From: an uncultured Nitrospinaceae bacterium
GTDB lineage: Bacteria; UBA8248
DNA length: 64,000 nt
Assembly (NCBI GenBank): GCA_964558115.1
Contig: CAZLCI010000001.1
Coordinates: 6,336 to 70,335 of the forward strand
Reading direction: 5' to 3'
Shown: one piece after another, positions 11,535 to 44,226 of the stretch
Numbering within the stretch: position 1 is the stretch's first letter
How the letters are laid out: each line of letters begins with the position of its first letter
The notes under the pieces: model-generated
Databases searched by the model: none
Seen by the model: the letters and a program-made list of their open reading frames with translations, nothing else
What the model was told of the DNA's origin: nothing
Program-made: the position numbers and the translations under genes

Positions 11535-12674
11535 TTGGATAACCAGTACTATGAAACATATCTTCGAAAGACTTCATTGTCAGAAGTTTTGCAGAAAGTA
11601 GATAAAGGAGATAGATTATCATTTGAAGACGGTCTCTCTTTATACGCTTCAAATGATATTAATGCGATAGGATACTTAGCTAATAAAGTTCGAGAACGAC
11701 TTCATGGTAATCGTACTTTTTACAATGTGAATAGTCATATTAATTATTCGAATGTTTGTGTCTTGTGGAAGGCTTGTAAATTTTGTGCTTTTGGAAAAAA
11801 AGAAGGGCAGCAAGATGCGTACTCCTATTCGTTAGAAGAAATTTTTAAACAGGCGGAAGAACTGGGGAAAGGCCGTACGGAATTTCATATGGTCGGAGGC
11901 CTTCATCCTGACTTACCGTTTGATTATTACTTAGAGATGATTCACGGTATTAAGGAAATTCATCCTCATCTTCATCTGAAATGTTTTACTTCAACTGAAA
12001 TACGTTGGATTGCAGATCATATTGCCAAGATGAGTATTGAAGAAACTTTGGAAACATTGGTTAGAGCAGGACTTGGTTCCCTTACAGGTGGAGGGGCTGA
12101 AATTTTTGCAGAGCCAACAAGATCGAAAATATGCAAAGGGAAACAGTCTGCAGAGGATTGGCTAGAAGTTCACCGAATTGCACACAACATGGGATTATCT
12201 AGTACATGTACTATGTTATATGGCCATATTGAGACTGATGCTGATAGAGTAGATCATATGTTACAACTTCGAGAATTACAGGATGAGACCAATGGTTTTA
12301 CAACATTTATTCCACTATCCTTTCACCCCGATAATACACAAATGAGTGATGTACGTCCTTCTGGTGGCATTTTAGATTTAAAGAATTATGCTGTTAGTAG
12401 ACTTTTATTGGATAATATTCCACATATTAAAGCTTATTGGATTATGGTTGGTCTTCCTATTGCTCAATTAAGTCAACAATATGGAGTAAATGATTTAGAT
12501 GGGACTGTTGTTCAAGAAAAAATTTATCATATGGCTGGAGCTCAAACTCCATCTGAATTAACGGTTGATTATATACGAAATATTATTAGGGAAGTTGGTA
12601 GAGAGCCAGTAGAAAGAGATACCCTCTATAATGAGGTGATTCGTGAAGGAGAGAAATGGGCAGTTCATGCTTAA
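11535..12674 (+). CDS. Radical SAM enzyme of the MqnC/MqnE family (futalosine pathway)
   Basis: 379 aa; NYSNVCVLWKACKFCAF cysteine motif (Cx5Cx2C), HPDLP, TGGGAE, paralog of ORF 15020; MqnC vs MqnE assignment not resolvable by eye. Confidence 0.75.
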   Translation: MDNQYYETYLRKTSLSEVLQKVDKGDRLSFEDGLSLYASNDINAIGYLANKVRERLHGNRTFYNVNSHINYSNVCVLWKACKFCAFGKKEGQQDAYSYSLEEIFKQAEELGKGRTEFHMVGGLHPDLPFDYYLEMIHGIKEIHPHLHLKCFTSTEIRWIADHIAKMSIEETLETLVRAGLGSLTGGGAEIFAEPTRSKICKGKQSAEDWLEVHRIAHNMGLSSTCTMLYGHIETDADRVDHMLQLRELQDETNGFTTFIPLSFHPDNTQMSDVRPSGGILDLKNYAVSRLLLDNIPHIKAYWIMVGLPIAQLSQQYGVNDLDGTVVQEKIYHMAGAQTPSELTVDYIRNIIREVGREPVERDTLYNEVIREGEKWAVHA

Positions 12675-14965
12675 GACTCGGAACAGTTCCTTTCATTAAT
12701 GCAAGACCTCTTACATTCAGTCTCGAAAATAATGAAAACATTCAAATTGTTAGTTTCCCTCCTAGTGAACTATCTTCACTTTTAAAAGATAATAAGTTAG
12801 ATGGTGCATTAGTTTCTTCGTTTTCTTTATTTAGATTAAAGAATTCTAGATATGTGCCTAAAATTGGGATAGTAAGTAATGGTCCAGTAGAAAGTATTCG
12901 CCTGTATTGTAGAAAACCCGCGGATACATTGCAGGTGGTTGGTCTAGATTCTTGGTCTCTTTCCGCAAGCAATATGTTACGCGTTCTGCTGAAACACCGA
13001 TGGGGAGTAGAACCAAAGTTCGTTCCTGTAAATCCCAAAATACCTCCAAAAGAAGATAATCAATTAGATGCATTTCTTTTAATTGGTGACAATGCATTAA
13101 GAGAGCCTCCAGGAGATTTTTATGTGGTGGACTTAGGAGATGAATGGACTGCGTTCACAAAGCTTCCTTTTGTGTATGCAGTCTGGGTTTTCCCGGAAGG
13201 TAAAGGAAATTCTGATATCGCGTGTGAATTAATTAAATCAAAAGAAGAAGGGATTAAGAATCTAGATAAAATTACTTCTGTTCTTGCAAGTGAGAATTTA
13301 TTTATAAAAGAAGGAGATATCCGTAATTATTTAACAAATTGTATTTTATACGATGTGGGAGAAAAAGAGGAAGAAGGGCTAAATTTATATTACGATTACT
13401 TACAGAAAGATGGTCTTGTGGAAAAAGGATGGATTGCGAGGAAATTACCTGTACCAGACATTCGTTTCCATAAAGAAGGAGCAGAAAATCAAAAGGAAGA
13501 TTTAGAAATTTTTAATTCTTCTAATTCTCAAGAAGACGAGCAACTTTGTTTTAAATCTATTGCTGATGTGTCTTCCATGATTAGAGAAAAGAAAATTTCA
13601 CCTTTAGATCTTACACAGTCTTTCTTGAAACAAATTGAAAAAATAAATAGTAAATTGAACGTATACGTTACTGTTACAGAAGAAGAAGCGTTAAAAAAGG
13701 CGACAAAGGCAGAGAAAGAAATCAATAGAGGAAATTATAGAGGCCCTTTGCACGGTATCCCTTTTGCGGCAAAAGATATCATTAATACGGAGAAAATCCT
13801 TACTACAAATGGTTCTAATTTTTTTAAAGATCATTACCCTGACAAGGACGCGTTTGTAATAAGTTCTCTTTACGATGCAGGTGCTGTTTTGTTGGGTAAA
13901 GTGAATACTCATGAGTTTGCTGGGGGTTCAACAACCATCAATCCATTCTATGGTACTACTAAAAATCCATGGAATACCGAGAGGATAGTAGGAGGTTCTA
14001 GTGGAGGTTCTGCGGCTGCCGTAGCTTCGTATTTGACGACTTTTTCATTGGGAACCGATACAGGCGGTTCGATAAGAACTCCTGCTGGTTTTTGTGGTGT
14101 TGTAGGTCTTAAGCCTACTCATGGAAGAGTAAGTTTATCTGGAGTTTGTCCAAACGTTTTGAGCTTTGATCATGTAGGACCGATGGCAAGAAGTACAGAA
14201 GATATAGCTATAATTCTTGAAAGTATGGCAGGGTATGATTTTCAAGATTCTAAATCTAAAGATATTCCTGTTCCAGAATATTCTTCAACCATTGATCAGG
14301 GAATCAAGGATAAGAGGATTGTTATCTGTCCGGATTTTTATAATCATTCTGATGTCGATTCTGCAGTACGAGAAAATTTTGAAAGTGCATGTTTGGTTTT
14401 TGAAAGTCTAGGAGCAATTGTAGAGGAGATCCCTTTCCCACATTTTGAAAAAGTAATGAATATTTTTCCGAAGATAGCTGGACCGGAGTTTTCAGAATTT
14501 CATAGATCCTTTTTTGAAAAGAATCCAAAAAGTTATGGAGAAGATATTTTAAAACGTCTTGATTGGTCTTTTGAAATTTCAATGGACGAGTACGTTAGAG
14601 GTTTGCGTGAACGTGAAATTTTCCAAAGAGAAATGGAGGAATTTTTCAAAACTTTTGATGCTCTTATTTCTCCGGCTCTTCCGTGTGTTGCTCCAACAAT
14701 AGAAGGTCTCAAAGCTAATATAGACAAAAAAGAAATAGTTTATGATTATCTGCATCGACCATTTTTAACTCCTCATAATGTAACAGGATTTCCTGCATTA
14801 GTTTCTCCTACGGGATTTGACCAAATTGGGATGCCTACCTCTATACAGATTGTTTCTGGTCCATGGAAAGAGGAAAGTTTATTCCAGATTGCGCATGCTT
14901 TTGAAAAAGAGAGTTCATCATATAGAAATGTTATTCCTGAAATTATACTTAGAGAGAATGGTTAG
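12656..14965 (+). CDS. mqnA: Bifunctional-looking fusion: MqnA chorismate dehydratase domain (aa ~1-275) + amidase-signature enzyme (aa ~295-769)
   Basis: N-term LRLGTVPFINARPL MqnA motif; C-term typical AS-family N-terminus (ISPLDLTQSFLKQIEKINSKLNVYVTV), AAKDII Lys, GGSSGGSAAAVA Ser-cisSer-Lys block; single uninterrupted 769-aa ORF. Confidence 0.75.
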   Translation: MGSSCLRLGTVPFINARPLTFSLENNENIQIVSFPPSELSSLLKDNKLDGALVSSFSLFRLKNSRYVPKIGIVSNGPVESIRLYCRKPADTLQVVGLDSWSLSASNMLRVLLKHRWGVEPKFVPVNPKIPPKEDNQLDAFLLIGDNALREPPGDFYVVDLGDEWTAFTKLPFVYAVWVFPEGKGNSDIACELIKSKEEGIKNLDKITSVLASENLFIKEGDIRNYLTNCILYDVGEKEEEGLNLYYDYLQKDGLVEKGWIARKLPVPDIRFHKEGAENQKEDLEIFNSSNSQEDEQLCFKSIADVSSMIREKKISPLDLTQSFLKQIEKINSKLNVYVTVTEEEALKKATKAEKEINRGNYRGPLHGIPFAAKDIINTEKILTTNGSNFFKDHYPDKDAFVISSLYDAGAVLLGKVNTHEFAGGSTTINPFYGTTKNPWNTERIVGGSSGGSAAAVASYLTTFSLGTDTGGSIRTPAGFCGVVGLKPTHGRVSLSGVCPNVLSFDHVGPMARSTEDIAIILESMAGYDFQDSKSKDIPVPEYSSTIDQGIKDKRIVICPDFYNHSDVDSAVRENFESACLVFESLGAIVEEIPFPHFEKVMNIFPKIAGPEFSEFHRSFFEKNPKSYGEDILKRLDWSFEISMDEYVRGLREREIFQREMEEFFKTFDALISPALPCVAPTIEGLKANIDKKEIVYDYLHRPFLTPHNVTGFPALVSPTGFDQIGMPTSIQIVSGPWKEESLFQIAHAFEKESSSYRNVIPEIILRENG

Positions 14966-15019: not shown

Positions 15020-16093
15020 ATGGCAGAAAAAAGATTTTACGAGGTAATAGAGAAAACCTTACTTGGTGAAAGATTATCTTCAGATGACTGTCTTGTATTG
15101 TTTCAAGGTGATGACTTAGTTGCGCTCGGCGCTGCTGCTGATCAAATCAGAAATTCTTATCACCCAGGGCGTATTGCTACTTATTGCGTTGATCGAAATA
15201 TAAATTATACGAATGTATGTGATGTTTATTGTACATTCTGTGCATTCTATAGACCTCCAGGTGGACATCCCGAATCATATGTAAGAACAAAAGAAGAAAT
15301 CAAGGAAAAGATAGATGAATTATATTCTTTGGGAGGAAAGCAGATTCTATTACAAGGAGGACACCACCCAGATCTGCGAATAGAATGGTATGAAGGTTTA
15401 TTTTCATGGATGAAGGCTGAATATCCCGATCTACATTTACATGCGCTGAGCCCTCCAGAGATTTATCATATTTCCAAACTAGAAGATATGCCGTTTGAAG
15501 TTGTAATAAATAGGTTGCATCAAGCTGGTCTTGATTCTATTCCAGGAGGTGGTGGGGAAATTTTAGTAGATCGAGTTCGAAACAAGATTTCAAAATTAAA
15601 AGTCAATACAGAAGGGTGGCTCGAAATTATGAGAGTAGCACACGGTCTTGGTTTGCGATCTACTGCTACAATGATGTTTGGTCATGTGGAAACTCTAGAA
15701 GAGAGAGTTGAACATTTAAATTCTTTAAGAGAATTGCAGGATCAAACAAAAGGTTTTACTGCATTTATTTGTTGGACTTTCCAGAATGACGGTTCTGCAA
15801 CTCTAAGAGTTCCCACAGTAGGTAGTAGTGAATATTTAAAAACATTGTCTATCAGCAGACTTTTTTTAGATAATATTCCAAATTTTCAATCTTCTTGGGT
15901 GACTCAAGGAATGAAGATTGGAGAACTTTCCCTTCACTATGGTGCAAATGACATGGGGTCTACTATGATTGAGGAGAATGTCGTGAGTTCTGCGGGCACG
16001 ACTTATTGCCTGAATGAAGAAGATTTGAGTGTCATGGCAAAGAATGCTGGTCTAGTGCCGAAAAGACGAAATTTTTTCTATGATTTAGTCTGA
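15020..16093 (+). CDS. Radical SAM enzyme of the MqnE/MqnC family (aminofutalosine synthase or cyclic dehydroxyfutalosine synthase)
   Basis: 357 aa; canonical NYTNVCDVYCTFCAF (Cx3Cx2C), PGGGGEI, paralog of ORF 11535. Confidence 0.8.
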   Translation: MAEKRFYEVIEKTLLGERLSSDDCLVLFQGDDLVALGAAADQIRNSYHPGRIATYCVDRNINYTNVCDVYCTFCAFYRPPGGHPESYVRTKEEIKEKIDELYSLGGKQILLQGGHHPDLRIEWYEGLFSWMKAEYPDLHLHALSPPEIYHISKLEDMPFEVVINRLHQAGLDSIPGGGGEILVDRVRNKISKLKVNTEGWLEIMRVAHGLGLRSTATMMFGHVETLEERVEHLNSLRELQDQTKGFTAFICWTFQNDGSATLRVPTVGSSEYLKTLSISRLFLDNIPNFQSSWVTQGMKIGELSLHYGANDMGSTMIEENVVSSAGTTYCLNEEDLSVMAKNAGLVPKRRNFFYDLV

Positions 16094-16103
16094 TTTTTCT
16101 TTC

Positions 16104-17381
16104 GTGAAAGAATTAAGTTTGGATAACACTAAAGATACATTTCAACTATGGACAGCCGATCTTATTTGCCCGGTAAACGATTTACCTATAAGAAATGGAG
16201 CAGTTTTAACTTCAAATGGTAAAGTTTTAGCAGTAGGAGAGGAAGAATTTATTCGTCCTCACAGCACTTTTGTAACCGAGAGACACTTTGAAAACTCGAT
16301 TCTTATTCCAGGACTAGTGAATTCACATACACATCTTGAATTAAGTGGTATGCAAATTTTACCATCGAAACTGTCGGAATGGATTCCAAATTTAGTATCG
16401 CAAACAAGAGAGTGGCCGAGTCATTTATTTCTTTCTTCCTCAAGGATTGGAACAGCTAAAAGTATTTCTTCAGGCGTAACCTGTGTTGGAGATATTAGCG
16501 TCTCGGGTGAGAGTAAGACAGCTATTGTTGATGCAGGAATGAGGGGCATAATTTTTCATGAATTTTTAGGAATTAATGAAAAAGAAGCTGAATCAATTTT
16601 TAATAAAAAAATAGCAGAAATTTATGAATCTAAGGATTACGAAGGAGAATCGAACGAATTTGTTCGTAATGGTCTTAGTCCTCATTCTCCTTATTCTGCT
16701 TCTTTCGATCTTTATAATAGAATTGTGTCTCATGGAAGTTCAAATAATTTCAAAGTAGCAACACATCTTCTTGAAAGTCCAGATGAGTTGCAATTTTTGC
16801 AGACTGGGGAAGGTGATTTTCAAGAGATGTTCGAAAGATTACAAAGTGATATAGATTTTTTTGAACCTTTCGGTTGCAGTCCCATAGAGTTTTTTAATCA
16901 AAAGGGGATTCTTCGAAATATTCATCTAACTATTCATTGTAATCAAACGGATGAAAATGATTGGAGATTATTACGGACAAACGGAGTCTATGTTTGTGTT
17001 TGTCCAAGGTCTGCATCTTTTTTTGATCATGCTTTAGCAGATATTCGAGGAATGAGGAATCAAGGAGTAATGTTGTGTCTAGGGACAGATAGTCTTGCTA
17101 GTTCTCCTTCTCTATCTGTTTTGGAAGAAGCAATAGCCTTAAGAGAAGCAGATAGTACTATCGAAGCAAGTGAACTTCTTATGTATTGCACACTCTCTGG
17201 TTCAAAGGCTTTAGGATTTGAAAATGAAGGAATTGGTTCAATTATGCCTGGAGGTGTTGCAGATTTTGCAGTTGTAGAAGTATCCAAAGACCATAAATAT
17301 TTAGATATAGAACATATTTTCGACAAACGTTCGGTTGTTGGATGTACTGTTATAAATGGGATGATACGATTTGAAAAATAA
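16104..17381 (+). CDS. Amidohydrolase-superfamily deaminase (aminodeoxyfutalosine/MTA/SAH deaminase-like)
   Basis: 425 aa; LVNSHTHLELS metal-binding HxH, downstream His/Asp ligands (GTDSLAS); position in mqn cluster. Confidence 0.6.
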   Translation: MKELSLDNTKDTFQLWTADLICPVNDLPIRNGAVLTSNGKVLAVGEEEFIRPHSTFVTERHFENSILIPGLVNSHTHLELSGMQILPSKLSEWIPNLVSQTREWPSHLFLSSSRIGTAKSISSGVTCVGDISVSGESKTAIVDAGMRGIIFHEFLGINEKEAESIFNKKIAEIYESKDYEGESNEFVRNGLSPHSPYSASFDLYNRIVSHGSSNNFKVATHLLESPDELQFLQTGEGDFQEMFERLQSDIDFFEPFGCSPIEFFNQKGILRNIHLTIHCNQTDENDWRLLRTNGVYVCVCPRSASFFDHALADIRGMRNQGVMLCLGTDSLASSPSLSVLEEAIALREADSTIEASELLMYCTLSGSKALGFENEGIGSIMPGGVADFAVVEVSKDHKYLDIEHIFDKRSVVGCTVINGMIRFEK

Positions 17382-38300: not shown

Positions 38301-38427
38301 ATTGGTCATTTGAAGTAATTTTTATCTATAGCTTGAAAATGGCCGGTTTTTTGTTTAAATACTTTTAAATAGAAAATTTAGAATTTTATGTGTTTAATTA
38401 TAAAATCTTTCCAATAAGGAGAAATCA

Positions 38428-39435
38428 GTGATAATTGACCCTCATGCCCATATAGCTCCACCTAGTTTTATAGAGGATGTAAGAAAAGGTAGTTTTGGTG
38501 ATTCTGTAATTATTGAACCAGGTGAAGACTGGGAATTTTTAACAACTAAGAATACGGTTTTGGGACAGGAAAGAATTCATAAAAATCCTCTTCCAAAAAC
38601 AACTTATGATGTTGATCTTAGGCTTTCTGATATGAAGAATATGGGAGTTGATATGCAGGTTTTATCAGTCGTTCCTCCCATGACATTTTACGCTTTAGAT
38701 GCAGGATTGAACAAAGAAATCTCCTCATCCTTAAATGATGCTTTAACTGAATTGACTAAGACATATCCTGAACAATTTCATTGCATGGCCCAGATTCCGC
38801 TTCAAGATCCAGATGCTGCTGCTTCTGAATTAGATCGTGCTGTAAAAAATGGGCATAAAGGTTGCCAGATAGCATCAAATGTTGCAGGAACAAATCTTGA
38901 CGATTCTAGTCTTGATGTTGTATGGGCAAAGGCTTGTGAATTAGATGTCCCTGTTTTTATTCACCCTTCAGATGTTATGGGAGTAAATGATCGTCTTAAA
39001 GACTACTATCTTCGCAATTTTATTGGCAATCCTTTAGATACAACAATTTCGATGGCTTGCTTAATTTTTGGTGGTGTTTTTGACAGGTTCCCAAATATTA
39101 AATTTTTAGTTTCCCACACTGGAGGTTTTACTCCTTGGATTCGTGGTCGCTGGGAACACGGTTATGGTGAAAGACGTGAGCCGAAGGTTAATGGGGCAAA
39201 AAATCCTGAGCAATATATTGATAATTTTTATTATGACACAATAATTCATAATGCTGATTCTTTTGAATTTGCAGTCAACACTTTGGGCTCTGAACGAATT
39301 TTATATGGGACGGATTACCCGTTTGATATGGGTTATTTAGGTGCAGCAAAGGATATTCCTGGACTTTCGCGATTGTCGGATGCAGATCAAGATAAAATCT
39401 TGAGTGGGAATGTAAAAGAACTTTATAAAATATAA
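38428..39435 (+). CDS. Amidohydrolase-2 (PF04909, ACMSD-like metal-dependent decarboxylase/hydratase) paralog 1
   Basis: 335 aa; IDPHAHIAP start, conserved HPxD, HxGG, GTDYPFD C-terminal motif. Confidence 0.75.
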   Translation: MIIDPHAHIAPPSFIEDVRKGSFGDSVIIEPGEDWEFLTTKNTVLGQERIHKNPLPKTTYDVDLRLSDMKNMGVDMQVLSVVPPMTFYALDAGLNKEISSSLNDALTELTKTYPEQFHCMAQIPLQDPDAAASELDRAVKNGHKGCQIASNVAGTNLDDSSLDVVWAKACELDVPVFIHPSDVMGVNDRLKDYYLRNFIGNPLDTTISMACLIFGGVFDRFPNIKFLVSHTGGFTPWIRGRWEHGYGERREPKVNGAKNPEQYIDNFYYDTIIHNADSFEFAVNTLGSERILYGTDYPFDMGYLGAAKDIPGLSRLSDADQDKILSGNVKELYKI

Positions 39436-39449
39436 TTTCTTTTTAGACT

Positions 39450-40472
39450 TTGGAGTTTAAGATGGTTATTGATCCTCACACGCATATTGTTCCTTCAGGT
39501 TTTTTAGAAGATGTTAGAAACAAAGCTTTTGGAGATACTGTAACCATTCAAAATGCGGATGGGAAGGAATGGATAGTTACGAAGAGTAATGTTCTTGGGA
39601 AAAGCAGGGAATTGAGAAATATTCTTACTCCGATGTATTATGAAGTTGATTTACGTTTAAAAGATATGGAGCGTATGGGAGTTAGTCGACAGATTCTGTC
39701 TGTTTCTCCGTCACTTACTTTTTATTCTCTAGACAAGTCGATTACTAATGATCTTGCTCAATCTATGAACGATGCACTAATCGAAATTTCAAATAATAAC
39801 TCTTCTGATTTTTCCTGTATGGCAACAGTTCCTCTCCAAGATCCTGAATTAGCAGCAGTAGAATTAGAACGTGCAATAAAAAACGGCCATCTTGGTGTTC
39901 AGATAGCGTCGAATGTTGCAGGCAAAAATTTGGACGATCCTAATCTGGATGTTTTTTGGCAAAAAGCACAAGATCTAGGGATTACTATATTTATCCATCC
40001 AATTGATACAATGGGTGCGGCAGATAGACTCAAGGATTTTTATTTACGTAATTTCATTGGGAATCCTCTTGATACAACTATAGCCGCTGCATGTTTGATT
40101 TTTGGAGGGGTTTTGGATCGTTTCCCAAATTTAAATTTCTTACTTTCTCATCTAGGTGGTTTTCTCCCTTGGATTCGAGGACGTTGGGAACATGGTTATG
40201 GAGAAAGAAGGGAACCAAAAGTACATGGTTCTAAGAACCCAGAAGAATATATAAATAGATTTTTTTACGATACCATAATTCATAATTCTGACTCATTTGA
40301 ATTTGCCGTAAAAACTTTGGGTTCCGAAAGAGTTGTGTATGGGACGGATTATCCAGCAGACATGGCGAATCATGAAAATTGTCGTGAAATTCCTGGAATG
40401 AGCAAATTGGAAGAGAAACAGCAGAATGAAATTTTGGTTGAGAATGTACGTAAGCTTTATCAAATTACTTGA
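39450..40472 (+). CDS. Amidohydrolase-2 (PF04909, ACMSD-like) paralog 2
   Basis: 340 aa; ~60 % identical to ORF 38428 by eye across full length (tandem duplicate). Confidence 0.75.
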   Translation: MEFKMVIDPHTHIVPSGFLEDVRNKAFGDTVTIQNADGKEWIVTKSNVLGKSRELRNILTPMYYEVDLRLKDMERMGVSRQILSVSPSLTFYSLDKSITNDLAQSMNDALIEISNNNSSDFSCMATVPLQDPELAAVELERAIKNGHLGVQIASNVAGKNLDDPNLDVFWQKAQDLGITIFIHPIDTMGAADRLKDFYLRNFIGNPLDTTIAAACLIFGGVLDRFPNLNFLLSHLGGFLPWIRGRWEHGYGERREPKVHGSKNPEEYINRFFYDTIIHNSDSFEFAVKTLGSERVVYGTDYPADMANHENCREIPGMSKLEEKQQNEILVENVRKLYQIT

Positions 40473-40546
40473 AAATAGATTTGTCTTTCGTTACTCTTTT
40501 TGTATTGATTTTAAATTTTTTTTTTAATTAAACTCGTGGGGTAAAG

Positions 40547-40828
40547 GTGTCAAAATTTGAAGTTGGAGAAGAAGTTCGAATAAAAGACACTTATTTCGAA
40601 GGTCATCATAGAACAACTGAATATGTGAAGGGCAAATCTGGAAAGATTATTCGTTATTTTGGAAATTACGAGAACCCTGAAATTCTTGCTTATGGTGGAG
40701 ACGGAAAGCCTTCCCAAGATCTGTATTGGGTTCAGTTTAATTTAAATGATCTTTGGGAACATAAACCAGGTGAGAAGAAGGATAAGTTGAATATTGAAAT
40801 CTATGACCATTGGATTGAAGCATTATAG
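40547..40828 (+). CDS. Nitrile hydratase beta-subunit C-terminal domain homolog (stand-alone, 93 aa)
   Basis: GTG start with RBS; matches only the C-terminal SH3-like half of NHase beta (EEVRIKD...GHHRTTEYVKGKSGKI...DLYWVQFNLNDLWE...IEIYDHWIE); in-frame TAA 18 nt upstream excludes a longer protein. Confidence 0.7.
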   Translation: MSKFEVGEEVRIKDTYFEGHHRTTEYVKGKSGKIIRYFGNYENPEILAYGGDGKPSQDLYWVQFNLNDLWEHKPGEKKDKLNIEIYDHWIEAL

Positions 40829-40848
40829 TTTCCTTAAGGAGAAAATAA

Positions 40849-41601
40849 ATGTCAGACAACCACCATGGAAGTGGGCATCATCATAATCATCCTCATGACA
40901 ATGAAAGTCCGTATAGTCACGATTTGTCATCGCATAATGCTCGAATGAAATCGGATGAAGCTTACATGGAAGATAAGGTTGTTCCTGTAGAGCACGATCT
41001 GGATTATTTTCAGGTACGTGTTGTTGGATTATTGAATCTTTTGAGAGAGAAGGGGATAGTAACTACTGATGAAATGCGACGTACGGTAGAGGATATATAT
41101 GCTCAAACTCCAACAACTGGTGCCAGGGTAGTTGCTCGAGCCTGGGTTGACGATGAATTTAAAGAACGTCTTCTTGCTGACGCACATTCTGCATGCGGAG
41201 AAATGGAAATAGATATAGAAGCAAGCAGTGTTACTAAATTGATAGTTGTTGAAAATACTGAAAGTTTACATTACATGGTCGTTTGTACTTTATGTTCTTG
41301 TTATCCAAGAGTACTTCTTGGACAACCTCCTACCTGGTATAAAAGTTTCCCTTACCGGTCAAAGGCAGTTACTGATCCTAGAGGTGCCTTGCTTGATTTG
41401 GGATACACTCCTCCAGAAGATATTGAATTAGTCGTTATAGATAGTAATGCCGACTGTCGATATCTTGTCATACCTCGTCGTCCAGCCGGAACAGAAGAAT
41501 TGGGAGAAGAGGCATTGTCTAGGCTCGTCACTCGTGATTCTATGATTGGTGTTGCAGATGCATTGACACCGGAAGAATATGAGAAGGTAGCGTTCGATTA
41601 A
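40849..41601 (+). CDS. Cobalt-type nitrile hydratase alpha subunit with His-rich N-terminal extension
   Basis: 250 aa; VVCTLCSCYPRVLLGQPPTWYKS metal-claw (Thr/Tyr = Co type), RYLVIPRRPAGTEELGEEALSRLVTRDSMIGV; first ~30 aa MSDNHHGSGHHHNHPHDNESPYSHDLSSH. Confidence 0.85.
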   Translation: MSDNHHGSGHHHNHPHDNESPYSHDLSSHNARMKSDEAYMEDKVVPVEHDLDYFQVRVVGLLNLLREKGIVTTDEMRRTVEDIYAQTPTTGARVVARAWVDDEFKERLLADAHSACGEMEIDIEASSVTKLIVVENTESLHYMVVCTLCSCYPRVLLGQPPTWYKSFPYRSKAVTDPRGALLDLGYTPPEDIELVVIDSNADCRYLVIPRRPAGTEELGEEALSRLVTRDSMIGVADALTPEEYEKVAFD

Positions 41602-42857
41602 TTAGTTTTCTTCTGTGTAGATAAAATTAATGCAGAAACTCCTGATATGATAAACATTAATGAAGCGATAGAAAATCCCCAATAGTAATTCAAGTGTATA
41701 TCATAAAGGAAGCCGGTGAACCATGCCCCAAATCCGCCAAAAATGGCAAAAAGACACATTGCGATACCATTTGTCTTGCCAAATTTTTCACCTGAAAAAT
41801 GGTCTGCCATTATTGCTGATGCAGTTGAACGTATAAGACCGAGAGCTATACCGTTTGTAATAGTTAATAAGTAAATTGACCATGGTGCGAAAGTAATATT
41901 GTATTTTCCTATCACGAACATTGAGATTACTCCGAGCAAACTACCTGTTAAAAACGTAGGAGTTCTTCCGTAGTAATCTGAAATTGAACTAATCAAATAG
42001 CCTACGATTAAAGATGCACCCCAGGTTGCAAAAATTCCTGCAGAAGAAAGATTCGTTATTCCGTGATCTGTCAAATGAGCAGGAAAGTGAACTAAGAGAA
42101 CAGTAAAAACATAAGCAATAGGCAGAAATAAAAATAAAAAAAGATAAAAACGAAATGAAAAAAAATTAACGGGGTCATTATGAATGTTTTTTGGAAAAGA
42201 TTTTTCTTTTTTTGTATGTTTTTTCTCTAAATGTAAAAAAGGGTGATCGGCAACCGTATTTTTTTGTTCAGGAAGATCACGATGGAATATTGCTGCGAGA
42301 GGAAGTGTAATGAATAGAATCAAAACAGAAAAAAAAACGTAACTCATTCTCCAGCCAAGAGCAAGAATGAGAATTGGCGTAAAAAAATTTAATATAAATG
42401 CAGTACCTTGAGCGGAACTAGAAATACCTAGAGCAAGTCCTCTTTTAGTAATAAACCAGTTAGAAAGAGTTGGTACTTGCGCAACCCAAGTACTTGATGC
42501 AAATCCAATATTCATAAGAAAGTAAGTTAGATAAAAGAAAGTAAGACTATTTATTTGACTTCCCAACAAGAGAGAAAGTCCGAAAACAGCAATTCCTGCA
42601 GACATTGTTAAACGTATACTTAATCTGTCAGAAATCCATCCAGAAAAAAGAGAGCAGACTGATTGTGCAAACATTCCAATTGAAAATGCAGCTGCAGTTT
42701 CAGCACGTGACCACGAAAATTCGTTTGAAATATCTTTAAAGAAAAAACCAAAACTTGAACGTGTTCCTATGAGTGAGAGCATTACAAAATAAACAATCGA
42801 AAGCACGATCCATCCATACCATATTTTATTTTGGTTTTTTTGTATTTTTAGTTTCAA
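41598..42857 (-). CDS. MFS family transporter
   Basis: 419 aa; 12 TM helices, central cytoplasmic loop. Confidence 0.65.
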   Translation of the reverse strand: MKLKIQKNQNKIWYGWIVLSIVYFVMLSLIGTRSSFGFFFKDISNEFSWSRAETAAAFSIGMFAQSVCSLFSGWISDRLSIRLTMSAGIAVFGLSLLLGSQINSLTFFYLTYFLMNIGFASSTWVAQVPTLSNWFITKRGLALGISSSAQGTAFILNFFTPILILALGWRMSYVFFSVLILFITLPLAAIFHRDLPEQKNTVADHPFLHLEKKHTKKEKSFPKNIHNDPVNFFSFRFYLFLFLFLPIAYVFTVLLVHFPAHLTDHGITNLSSAGIFATWGASLIVGYLISSISDYYGRTPTFLTGSLLGVISMFVIGKYNITFAPWSIYLLTITNGIALGLIRSTASAIMADHFSGEKFGKTNGIAMCLFAIFGGFGAWFTGFLYDIHLNYYWGFSIASLMFIISGVSALILSTQKKTN

Positions 42858-42881
42858 TTATGATTACCTACTAGGAGTATT

Positions 42882-43205
42882 TTAGTTTTCCCAAAAGGAA
42901 TAGCCAGAAAAAGTTTTTTCTACTCTGTTCAATGCAGCTTTAGATAAACGTACCCCTTCAATTTCTACTTCGTGAATTTCAGGATGTTGCAATAACCTTT
43001 GTCTTACACCGAGTGCATAGGTAACACTTTTTAAAGGACATCCAAGACAAGCACCCTCAAAGGCAAGTTGAACAGTTTTATCATCTTTTATTTTAACAAA
43101 GCGTATACCACCGCCATGTATTTTTAAAAGTGGTTTGATTTGTGTTTCGATCAAGTCATTAATGTCTTTTTCTAATTCATGTTCTTTCATAAAAAAATAT
43201 ACCAT
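42882..43205 (-). CDS. NifU-like (Nfu-type) Fe-S cluster scaffold domain protein
   Basis: 107 aa; ...HGGGIRFVKI...AFEGACLGCP CxxC motif of Nfu C-terminal domain. Confidence 0.65.
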   Translation of the reverse strand: MVYFFMKEHELEKDINDLIETQIKPLLKIHGGGIRFVKIKDDKTVQLAFEGACLGCPLKSVTYALGVRQRLLQHPEIHEVEIEGVRLSKAALNRVEKTFSGYSFWEN

Positions 43206-43206
43206 T

Positions 43207-44226
43207 TTATTTTTTGATAAATTCTTTTTTCTTAGATTCCAGATCTATATCGAATAATCTTGCTTGGTTCTCTGCTAAAATATTTCTTTTGTCTTCTTCT
43301 GTAATTTCTGGATAACCGTAATCCTCTTGAAGTTGTTCGTCAATTTTCATGTTCCATATCCAATCTAGGATAGGTCTTGGATTTCCAAGAAGTGGTGCTT
43401 CTGAACCCCACAGAATTCGATCAGAACCTACATCTCTTAGTAGCCTTCCTATCCACTCTTTAAAAGTTCTTGGTGCGACCATAGGAGTATGGCCTATGCC
43501 TGAAAGAACTAAGAAAACATTTGGGTATCTAGAGGCAATCCAGACGGTTTCTTCAAAATATGGGACGGCTAGATGATGTATTCCAAAAGATAAATCCGGA
43601 AAATCCATCGCAGCTCTTTCAATATCTAGAGGAGAAAGGTCCCTTAAACTAGCTCTCGTAATTGGATTGCCTTTATGGAACTGAAAAATTTTCATTCCAA
43701 GTTCAAGACCTTTTTCATATAGAGGATAGGCAATTTCTGGATCATCACATGCCCAAGACTTTCCATCTACATGAGCATTGTATATTTTAATTGATTTTGC
43801 TCCCATTTCTTTAACCTGTTCTTCCATTTGTTCCAGTGCTCCCTCTAAACTTGGGTACATAGGATCAACTGCGCCACAAAATAAAACTCTTTCTGGAAAG
43901 GCTTTTGAAAATTCATACTGTGCTTTCACGGGAGCGAAACCATCTTTGTAAAGATCAAATAAAGGAACTGCTTGGGCCATTGCCATATCTGTTCCAGAAT
44001 CCTCAAAAAGCAATTTGCCAAGGTCTTCGGAAGTCCATTTCCTAGCAAAGCCTTGAATTGGATCCCAGGAAGAGTAAATATCGTTTTCTGATCTTTGTCT
44101 TCGACCAAGAACTTTATTTAGATGATATTGTCTATCAAAATCACTCTCTTTTGATTTTAAGTTTTCGTCAGAATAGTCGTACATATGAACAACGTTATCG
44201 AAAATGAATACGTCTTTCTCTATCAT
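43207..44226 (-). CDS. Amidohydrolase-2 (PF04909)-like metal-dependent hydrolase
   Basis: 339 aa; FIFDNVVHMY N-term, FGIHHLAVP, ILWGSEAPL C-terminal motif; distant from the tandem pair. Confidence 0.5.
   Translation of the reverse strand: MIEKDVFIFDNVVHMYDYSDENLKSKESDFDRQYHLNKVLGRRQRSENDIYSSWDPIQGFARKWTSEDLGKLLFEDSGTDMAMAQAVPLFDLYKDGFAPVKAQYEFSKAFPERVLFCGAVDPMYPSLEGALEQMEEQVKEMGAKSIKIYNAHVDGKSWACDDPEIAYPLYEKGLELGMKIFQFHKGNPITRASLRDLSPLDIERAAMDFPDLSFGIHHLAVPYFEETVWIASRYPNVFLVLSGIGHTPMVAPRTFKEWIGRLLRDVGSDRILWGSEAPLLGNPRPILDWIWNMKIDEQLQEDYGYPEITEEDKRNILAENQARLFDIDLESKKKEFIKK

Follow-up and report, generated by a model that had tools for sequence, protein, structure and literature searches.

A conserved locus of two ACMSD-like amidohydrolases and a nitrile hydratase with a half-size beta subunit in Nitrospinota and Tectomicrobia

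Introduction

In nitrile hydratases (NHases), the arginine of the GHTR segment of the beta subunit is a second-shell residue that touches the oxidised cysteines, while the N-terminal half of the same subunit (betaN) usually provides the second active-site arginine and most of the substrate pocket. NHase activator proteins are related to beta. Thiocyanate hydrolase is also a three-subunit enzyme, with a split-beta layout. The toyocamycin NHase ToyJKL is an (alpha-beta-gamma)2 assembly with subunits of 21.2, 10 and 11.4 kDa (PMC8574189). In the fused beta-alpha NHases of eukaryotes (Monosiga brevicollis and others), a His-rich stretch is found just N-terminal of the alpha domain (PMC3323583). 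Here we analyse a stretch of 64,000 nucleotides (64 kb; hereafter the window) from an uncultured Nitrospinaceae bacterium (assembly GCA_964558115.1, contig CAZLCI010000001.1, positions 6,336 to 70,335 of the forward strand; G+C about 35%), in which two tandem amidohydrolase-2 (AH2) genes of family PF04909 precede a cobalt-type NHase whose beta subunit consists of the C-terminal half (betaC).

Nitrite oxidation in the ocean is dominated by Nitrospinaceae, which need reduced nitrogen for growth, and the established organic nitrogen sources of these oxidisers are urea and cyanate. The NHases already in print for related settings are ordinary ones, from comammox Nitrospira and ammonia-oxidising archaea. 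Full-text searches of the published literature gave no report of Nitrospina or Nitrospinota NHases, of a PF04909-linked NHase, or of a beta subunit without its N-terminal half, in agreement with a preliminary description of the window, which had taken the combination to be undescribed.

Results

The comparative data show a conserved four-gene unit that derives from a split-beta NHase through the loss of betaN, as is evident from its gene content, the truncation of beta, its conservation, its phylogenetic pattern and the retention of motifs. All four genes lie on the plus strand of the window. AH2-1, the position-1 paralog (38428-39435; 335 amino acids, aa), matches PF04909 at 1e-31 with 110.7 bits, and AH2-2, the position-2 paralog (39450-40472; 340 aa when read from a TTG codon), does so at 4e-27 with 96.3 bits, the cut-off being 26.4 in both cases. 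They are followed by betaC, the SH3-like half of beta (40547-40828; 93 aa; PF02211, NHase_beta_C, 2e-19), and by the gene of a cobalt-type alpha subunit (40849-41601; 250 aa; PF02979, NHase_alpha, 9e-71). The spacing of 14 nt initially given for the AH2 genes is valid if AH2-2 begins with the TTG codon of position 39450; gene callers run on an identical contig prefer an ATG at 39462, with which the gap is 26 nt and AH2-2 has 336 aa. The two further gaps measure 74 and 20 nt, a ribosome-binding site, AAGGAG, precedes the alpha ATG by 8 nt, and the four core genes are probably co-transcribed.

The NHase genes had first been read as a pair, a reading that stands for the cobalt-type alpha and fails for beta, which is not the normal partner; that its N-terminal half is missing is the most unusual trait of the locus. 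A full-length beta of about 210-230 aa would carry PF21006 and PF02211; the protein found here has 93 aa and PF02211 alone. Its match to the 226-position beta model TIGR03888 is confined to positions 137-224; the protein can be aligned to residues 129-217 of chain 3qxe_B and matches the alpha chain of thiocyanate hydrolase (PDB 2dd4) at 1e-6. About 35 positions are invariant in betaC alignments, among them the G-H-x-R segment, whose arginine aligns with that of GHTR in 3qxe_B. A hidden Markov model (HMM) built from 39 betaN proteins found no NHase_beta_N in any of the six frames of the window, save for a match to the N-terminus of alpha. The idea that the N-terminal extension of alpha might be a betaN relic was rejected: the match has an E-value of about 1e-7, yet by itself the extension yields about 0 bits; the signal arises from the ordinary first alpha helices, on which the alphas of split-beta loci score equally or higher.

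The alpha subunit carries the cobalt-type cysteine cluster VCTLCSCYP and matches the solved Co-type alpha chains (1ire, 1v29, 3qxe) at 1e-47 to 3e-49. It reaches 223.1 bits against the nitrile hydratase equivalog TIGR01323 (cut-off 249.85) and 173.3 bits against TIGR03887, the gamma subunit of thiocyanate hydrolase (cut-off 291.45); since it falls below the TIGR01323 cut-off, we regard it as a distinct subfamily. It also has an extension of about 50 additional His-rich residues at the N-terminus (residues 1 to about 53; 40849-41007, plus strand), which is probably disordered according to an AlphaFold2 model whose predicted local distance difference test values are below 50 at residues 1-35 and 43-48, where the model is uninformative. 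The features of alpha specific to the betaN-less clade described below are the long extension with VEHDLDYFQ, PPTWY (not PPDWY), FPYRSK, ADCRY with an extra cysteine, and HYMVVC. Two further candidates were discarded. The His-rich N-terminus as such is not unique to the clade, as shorter ones occur in split-beta alphas, so that only its length and VEHDLDYFQ are clade-specific; and the DEMRR motif was considered as a stand-in for the betaN arginine, but DE(M/V/I)RR is also present in alphas that are paired with betaN.

These data bear on whether the enzyme is still a working hydratase. The loss of betaN may have ended nitrile hydration and left alpha and betaC without an enzymatic role or with another one; the scores of alpha below the equivalog cut-offs of both nitrile hydratase and thiocyanate hydrolase would fit such a history, as would the essential arginine and pocket residues that the missing half normally bears. 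Decay or repurposing is nevertheless the least probable of the explanations that we weighed, because alpha retains 61-98% identity over deep lineages with its entire Cys-cluster region invariant (VCTLCSCYPR is identical across 34 aligned sequences), betaC retains its invariant positions, and the reading frames of the core genes are intact in every locus. Nelp et al. reportedly found in 2014 that the alpha subunit of toyocamycin NHase is catalytic by itself, which speaks in the same direction.

A database search with alpha returned about 25 sequence clusters (229-260 aa, more than 300 bits) that are set apart from ordinary alphas of 204-215 aa. The relatives with ordinary alphas have a three-gene split-beta order of betaN (about 100-120 aa, PF21006), betaC (about 95-105 aa) and alpha. 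We compared about 135 such loci: one from a Binatia metagenome-assembled genome (MAG; L090), one from a further MAG (L092), about 60 from genomes that are mostly alphaproteobacterial (L025-L088) and about 75 from metagenome contigs (L101-L177). The betaN gene lies directly 5' of betaC in 42 of the 63 loci from genomes and in almost every metagenome locus with sequence on that side, and none of the split-beta loci contains an AH2 gene. Of the 63 genome loci, 16 have an amidase or allophanate-hydrolase-like gene, which comes directly after alpha in Rhodobacteraceae and after an isochorismatase-like gene in others.

The loci with long alphas present the complementary arrangement. About 15 distinct betaN-less loci were collected (the window, which is L001, and L011, L013, L015, L017-L021, L023, L024, L096, L098-L100 and the Tectomicrobia contig L089). 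The betaN HMM found no betaN gene in the long-alpha loci, matching only the alpha N-terminus in a six-frame search of L011-L024 and yielding none in L098-L100 either. Among the loci compared, the lack of betaN is restricted to the Nitrospinota/Tectomicrobia clade. In all betaN-less loci the AH2 genes stand on the same strand directly 5' of betaC, with both copies wherever the contig reaches far enough, and the core gaps range from 13 to 140 nt at alpha identities down to 61%. The synteny check asked for at the outset thus upholds the proposed link between the AH2 pair and the NHase: the order AH2-AH2-betaC-alpha recurs in every related Nitrospinota/Tectomicrobia locus examined, while the flanks change. 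The Nitrospinota loci share one chromosomal backbone, with ScpA/B, a CoA-transferase, PfkB and an Ig_CycH lipoprotein on one side and EamA and nuoA on the other, and we therefore consider the unit to be vertically inherited. Between this backbone and the core, the genes just upstream have been swapped repeatedly (MarR with a small membrane protein, MBL-fold hydrolases, an NmrA-like protein), and so have those just downstream (Exo_endo_phos, Phosphodiest, a split PrdB/GrdB-like gene or EamA directly, and a dioxygenase in L089).

The two AH2 proteins are 62% identical, close to the 60% first estimated, and the HxH, His, His and Asp motifs for metal binding and catalysis are present in both across lineages; a loop at residues 50-60 differs between them. 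Across Nitrospinota the position-1 and position-2 proteins form two separate clades in a distance tree, from which we conclude that the duplication is ancient, predates the divergence of the lineages and was followed by retention of both copies. AH2-1 is the best-conserved protein of the region, with 72-80% identity where nuoA has 60-64% and PfkB 46-52%. The top solved relatives of the pair are ACMSDs, at about 2e-48, followed by 2,3-dihydroxybenzoate, gamma-resorcylate, 5-carboxyvanillate and uracil-5-carboxylate decarboxylases and then by LigY and LigJ. The identity to ACMSD is about one third, as read by eye from the printed alignment. The substrate-carboxylate arginines of ACMSD are Arg51 and Arg239 in the Pseudomonas fluorescens enzyme. 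The position of the F-R-P arginine of ACMSD is occupied by asparagine in AH2-1, and the arginine of the RGRW segment, which aligns with an ACMSD arginine, is retained. No NCBIfam model or equivalog matched the AH2 proteins; given this and the asparagine, we call them ACMSD-like and do not assign them to ACMSD (EC 4.1.1.45). No 3-hydroxyanthranilate dioxygenase gene is found near the AH2 genes.

Single AH2 homologs, 62-65% identical, occur without an NHase in other phyla, beside a three-subunit xanthine-dehydrogenase-type Mo hydroxylase (L094) or with TctC, a cupin and a flavoprotein (L095), so the family is not intrinsically bound to NHases. These standalone contexts, together with the one chromosomal backbone common to all linked loci, would suit an adjacency without a shared pathway, in which the AH2 pair serves a separate (hetero)aromatic acid route and an unrelated NHase is linked to it by vertical inheritance only. 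We regard this as unlikely: the four genes stay contiguous, tight and on the same strand while both flanks turn over, even where PfkB has fallen to 46-52% identity, and the Tectomicrobia contig retains AH2-betaC-alpha with a different downstream gene.

The position of the AH2 genes raises a further alternative, namely that AH2-1 and AH2-2, which might be joined in a heteromer, occupy the place of betaN on alpha/betaC, complete the pocket and channel the amide within a bifunctional complex. The distribution of the genes is suggestive in this regard, as the slot 5' of betaC holds AH2 in betaN-less loci and betaN, without AH2, in split-beta loci; the clade-specific changes PPTWY, FPYRSK, ADCRY and HYMVVC of alpha, which may lie at a subunit interface, and the retention of both paralogs since the ancient duplication would also be expected. 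A single evolutionary event could however give the same complementary pattern, AH2 and betaN have no sequence similarity, and the standalone AH2 homologs are ordinary enzymes. We consequently hold such a structural replacement to be quite improbable.

Downstream of the core, three genes on the minus strand converge on it, and open reading frames (ORFs) and Pfam matches agree with the seven genes, positions and families that had been put forward for the locus as a whole. The first encodes an oxalate:formate or monocarboxylate-like transporter of the major facilitator superfamily (MFS; 41598-42857; MFS_1 2e-38), which is convergent with alpha and overlaps its end by 4 nt. Its top NCBIfam score, 102 bits for SfMCT lactate, falls short of the cut-off of 320, and the OFA models give 39-52 bits against 335-375; no equivalog or subfamily cut-off is reached, and general MFS_1 membership is what can be assigned. 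The second encodes a NifU/Nfu-type domain protein (42882-43205; 107 aa; PF01106 at 4e-16 with 59.5 bits, cut-off 27) that carries the CxxC motif GACLGCP and lies far under the equivalog cut-offs of NfuA and NifU. The third, 1 nt away, encodes AH2c (43207-44226; 339 aa; PF04909 at 4e-30 over profile positions 57-288), which has no N-terminal HxH and at 23% identity to AH2-1 is indeed the more divergent PF04909 member that it was said to be.

The preliminary description had treated all seven genes as one module. Their adjacency in the window, L017-L019 and L021, and the one or two MFS genes found 3' of alpha in most Nitrospinota loci, would be in line with a single function that includes NifU, AH2c and MFS. 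The comparative data largely refute it. AH2c and NifU adjoin the core only in the five loci just mentioned; both are missing from L011, L015, L023, L024 and L096, and L013 holds AH2c fragments. Homologs of AH2c, 59-66% identical, are widespread in Bradyrhizobium/Nitrobacteraceae, Paraburkholderia, Mycobacterium and Reyranella, and in the Nitrobacteraceae locus L097 (6001-7355) the AH2c-NifU pair occurs with overlapping stop and start codons and without an NHase, beside a POR/DUF6537 oxidoreductase and an amino-acid-type ABC transporter. A seven-gene module is thus very improbable. AH2c and NifU are instead an independent, translationally coupled two-gene module that spans phyla and ties an Fe-S carrier domain to the amidohydrolase-2 fold. 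Wherever AH2c occurs near the core (window, L013, L021), it is invariably followed by NifU, if present, and then by the MFS gene or genes, and the transporter may be part of the AH2c-NifU module; since it is 5 kb off in L096 and missing in L024, its assignment to the NHase unit is uncertain.

In the remaining surroundings, a Pfam table of the window shows neither an amidase-signature nor a nitrilase gene in the roughly 10 kb to the left and right of the core, as the preliminary description had stated for its vicinity, and no activator or metallochaperone gene adjoins the NHase within the same distance. We scanned the larger ORFs between 1 and 30 kb and the genes annotated from about 30 to 52 kb; they contain a single amidase-signature domain, some 23 kb upstream at 12656-14965. 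It belongs to an unusual 769-aa fusion on the plus strand, of an MqnA/MqnD-like domain (PF02621) with the amidase-signature domain (PF01425), which sits between two radical-SAM CofH/MqnC-type genes and beside an Amidohydro_1 gene in a futalosine-type menaquinone cluster (neighbours at 11535-12674, 15020-16093 and 16104-17381). The intergenic stretch 5' of the four-gene core (38301-38427, plus strand) might contain a promoter; a scan gave weak consensus matches only, at 38377-38406 and 38408-38435, and fewer promoter-like sites than in shuffled sequence. No Rfam family matched the window at gathering score, and at E<=1 the region 37.4-44.5 kb yielded nothing credible, so that no riboswitch names a ligand.

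In marine metagenomes, the sequence clusters of the operon proteins have tens to hundreds of members each. An identical alpha protein is present on 21 marine metagenome contigs, many of them from Tara Oceans, and the closest genome records are uncultured Nitrospinaceae MAGs with betaC identities of 94-96%. All named members of the sequence clusters are MAG-derived, and none is a cultured strain.

Several features of the neighbouring loci were recorded in passing. Upstream of the AH2 pair, three Nitrospinota lineages have a MarR gene and a conserved small membrane protein of 160-198 aa, which matches no family and shares 69% identity in L011 and L013; the two lie at 2281-3394 in L011, 4090-5199 in L013, and 1823-2332 and 4867-5151 in L023; neither is present in the window. 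A phosphoesterase gene directly follows alpha on the same strand in three lineages, as Exo_endo_phos in L011 (8769-9665), as PF01663 Phosphodiest in L096 (10294-11703) and as a 466-aa ORF, Phosphodiest-like by eye only, in L021 (11158-12558); such neighbours are recurrent and non-orthologous. On the minus strand of L021 (12563-13465) and L096 (11761-12646), abutting ORFs correspond to the N- and C-terminal halves of a PrdB/GrdB-type selenoprotein B. In L021 a TGA codon in frame divides the halves, and the Pro-Leu-Cys after it gives a U-x-x-C pattern; the split gene beside the NHase cluster of these two Nitrospinota-like MAGs is probably a selenocysteine-containing reductase subunit.

Among the split-beta relatives (e.g. 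L035, 5634-13504), those of Rhodospirillales and Hyphomicrobiaceae have an NHase flanked by LysR, an NMT1-type ABC transporter, an isochorismatase-like hydrolase and an allophanate-hydrolase-like amidase. It can be speculated that loci with these flanks serve to convert an N-cyano or ureido compound, e.g. from cyanourea via biuret to allophanate. In L103-L108 and L111, two consecutive betaN-like ORFs precede betaC, and the additional ORF may encode a protein of the activator type.

Discussion

With moderate confidence, we propose that AH2-1, AH2-2, betaC and alpha form a vertically inherited four-gene operon of Nitrospinota and Tectomicrobia, in which a minimal NHase and a pair of AH2 enzymes act on the same carbon skeleton. 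The alpha/betaC enzyme would hydrate the C≡N group of a nitrile to the amide; that it is still a hydratase is inferred from the invariance of the Cys-cluster region and of the betaC arginine. As no activator gene is present, the flexible His-rich N-terminus of alpha may serve to acquire cobalt and load it into the enzyme. The amidase found in related split-beta loci leads us to expect an amide-processing partner, for which the AH2 pair is the sole candidate here: the two Zn-type paralogs would then hydrolyse the amide in place of the amidase-signature enzyme. Alternatively, they might decarboxylate or hydrate a neighbouring carboxylated or unsaturated group on the same skeleton. It can be conjectured that the nitrogen of the nitrile would in this way reach a nitrite oxidiser that scavenges reduced nitrogen.

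Regarding the substrate, an aromatic or heterocyclic compound had been suggested from the outset, and a few findings fit this suggestion. In the Tectomicrobia locus, a gene resembling gentisate/5-aminosalicylate 1,2-dioxygenase directly follows alpha (322 bits), in L096 an HpaD-like extradiol dioxygenase is located 4 kb downstream (263 bits), and MarR regulators lie upstream in three lineages (L011, L013, L023). Together with the contexts of the standalone AH2 homologs, these hints lend weak support to an aromatic substrate and are sparse. We consider an aromatic, arylaliphatic or carboxylated nitrile to be more likely than a simple aliphatic one.

Several points weigh against the operon proposal and its chemistry. 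The activity of an alpha/betaC enzyme is uncertain, as betaN normally gives a second active-site arginine and most of the pocket, and a betaN gene could sit elsewhere in the genome, our search having been limited to the 64 kb of the window. Promoter and terminator scans, used as operon markers, gave matches at or below the shuffled level and are uninformative. The association of AH2 with NHase may reflect one ancestral event followed by vertical inheritance instead of repeated selection, and the single AH2 homologs of other phyla do without an NHase. We know of no PF04909 enzyme that hydrolyses simple amides, and ring-cleavage dioxygenases accompany the unit in only 2 of about 15 lineages.

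A more far-reaching version of the operon proposal would have the minimal NHase in physical or metabolic partnership with the AH2 pair, the latter replacing both the betaN half and the amidase, which would amount to a new nitrile-to-ammonium architecture; this version is doubtful, and we put it forward with low confidence. Each part belongs to a known family and the chemistry is likely to be known; what is new is the truncated-beta architecture and its linkage to AH2, and the mechanism beyond gene content is a proposal. If the operon proposal is true, nitriles or the amides derived from them would join the organic nitrogen sources of the ocean's main nitrite oxidisers. A natural NHase without the N-terminal half of beta tests the part played by beta in cobalt insertion, cysteine oxidation and substrate selection, and could serve as a small scaffold for engineering. 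An NHase partnered by PF04909 enzymes and not by an amidase would, moreover, broaden the known chemistry or context of PF04909.

It remains to compare the locus with known systems. Among the convergent genes, the NifU-domain protein shares PF01106 and the CxxC motif with Fe-S carriers of the NfuA type, from which it differs as a stand-alone protein of 107 aa coupled to a PF04909 protein, in a pairing kept across phyla. The AH2 pair has the metal and catalytic set and the RGRW arginine in common with ACMSD and its PF04909 relatives (LigW, IDCase, LigJ, LigY and the decarboxylases), but its genes adjoin an NHase and not a kynurenine or lignin pathway. A His-rich stretch precedes the alpha domain as it does in the fused NHases of eukaryotes, in which a full beta is joined to alpha, whereas beta is here separate and half-size. 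With the Co-type NHases of Pseudonocardia thermophila, Bacillus/Geobacillus and Pseudomonas putida (1ire, 1v29, 3qxe), the unit shares the VCTLCSCYP core of alpha, the order of beta before alpha and the betaC arginine; unlike them, it has a beta without its N-terminal half, an alpha that is longer by about 50 His-rich residues, no activator and no amidase. ToyJKL and thiocyanate hydrolase are three-subunit enzymes of the NHase family. In these the betaN equivalent is a separate gene, whereas in the window it is absent; as in them, beta is divided into small proteins, and the closest outgroups of the unit (L090, L092, L025-L088, L101-L177) have exactly this three-gene layout.

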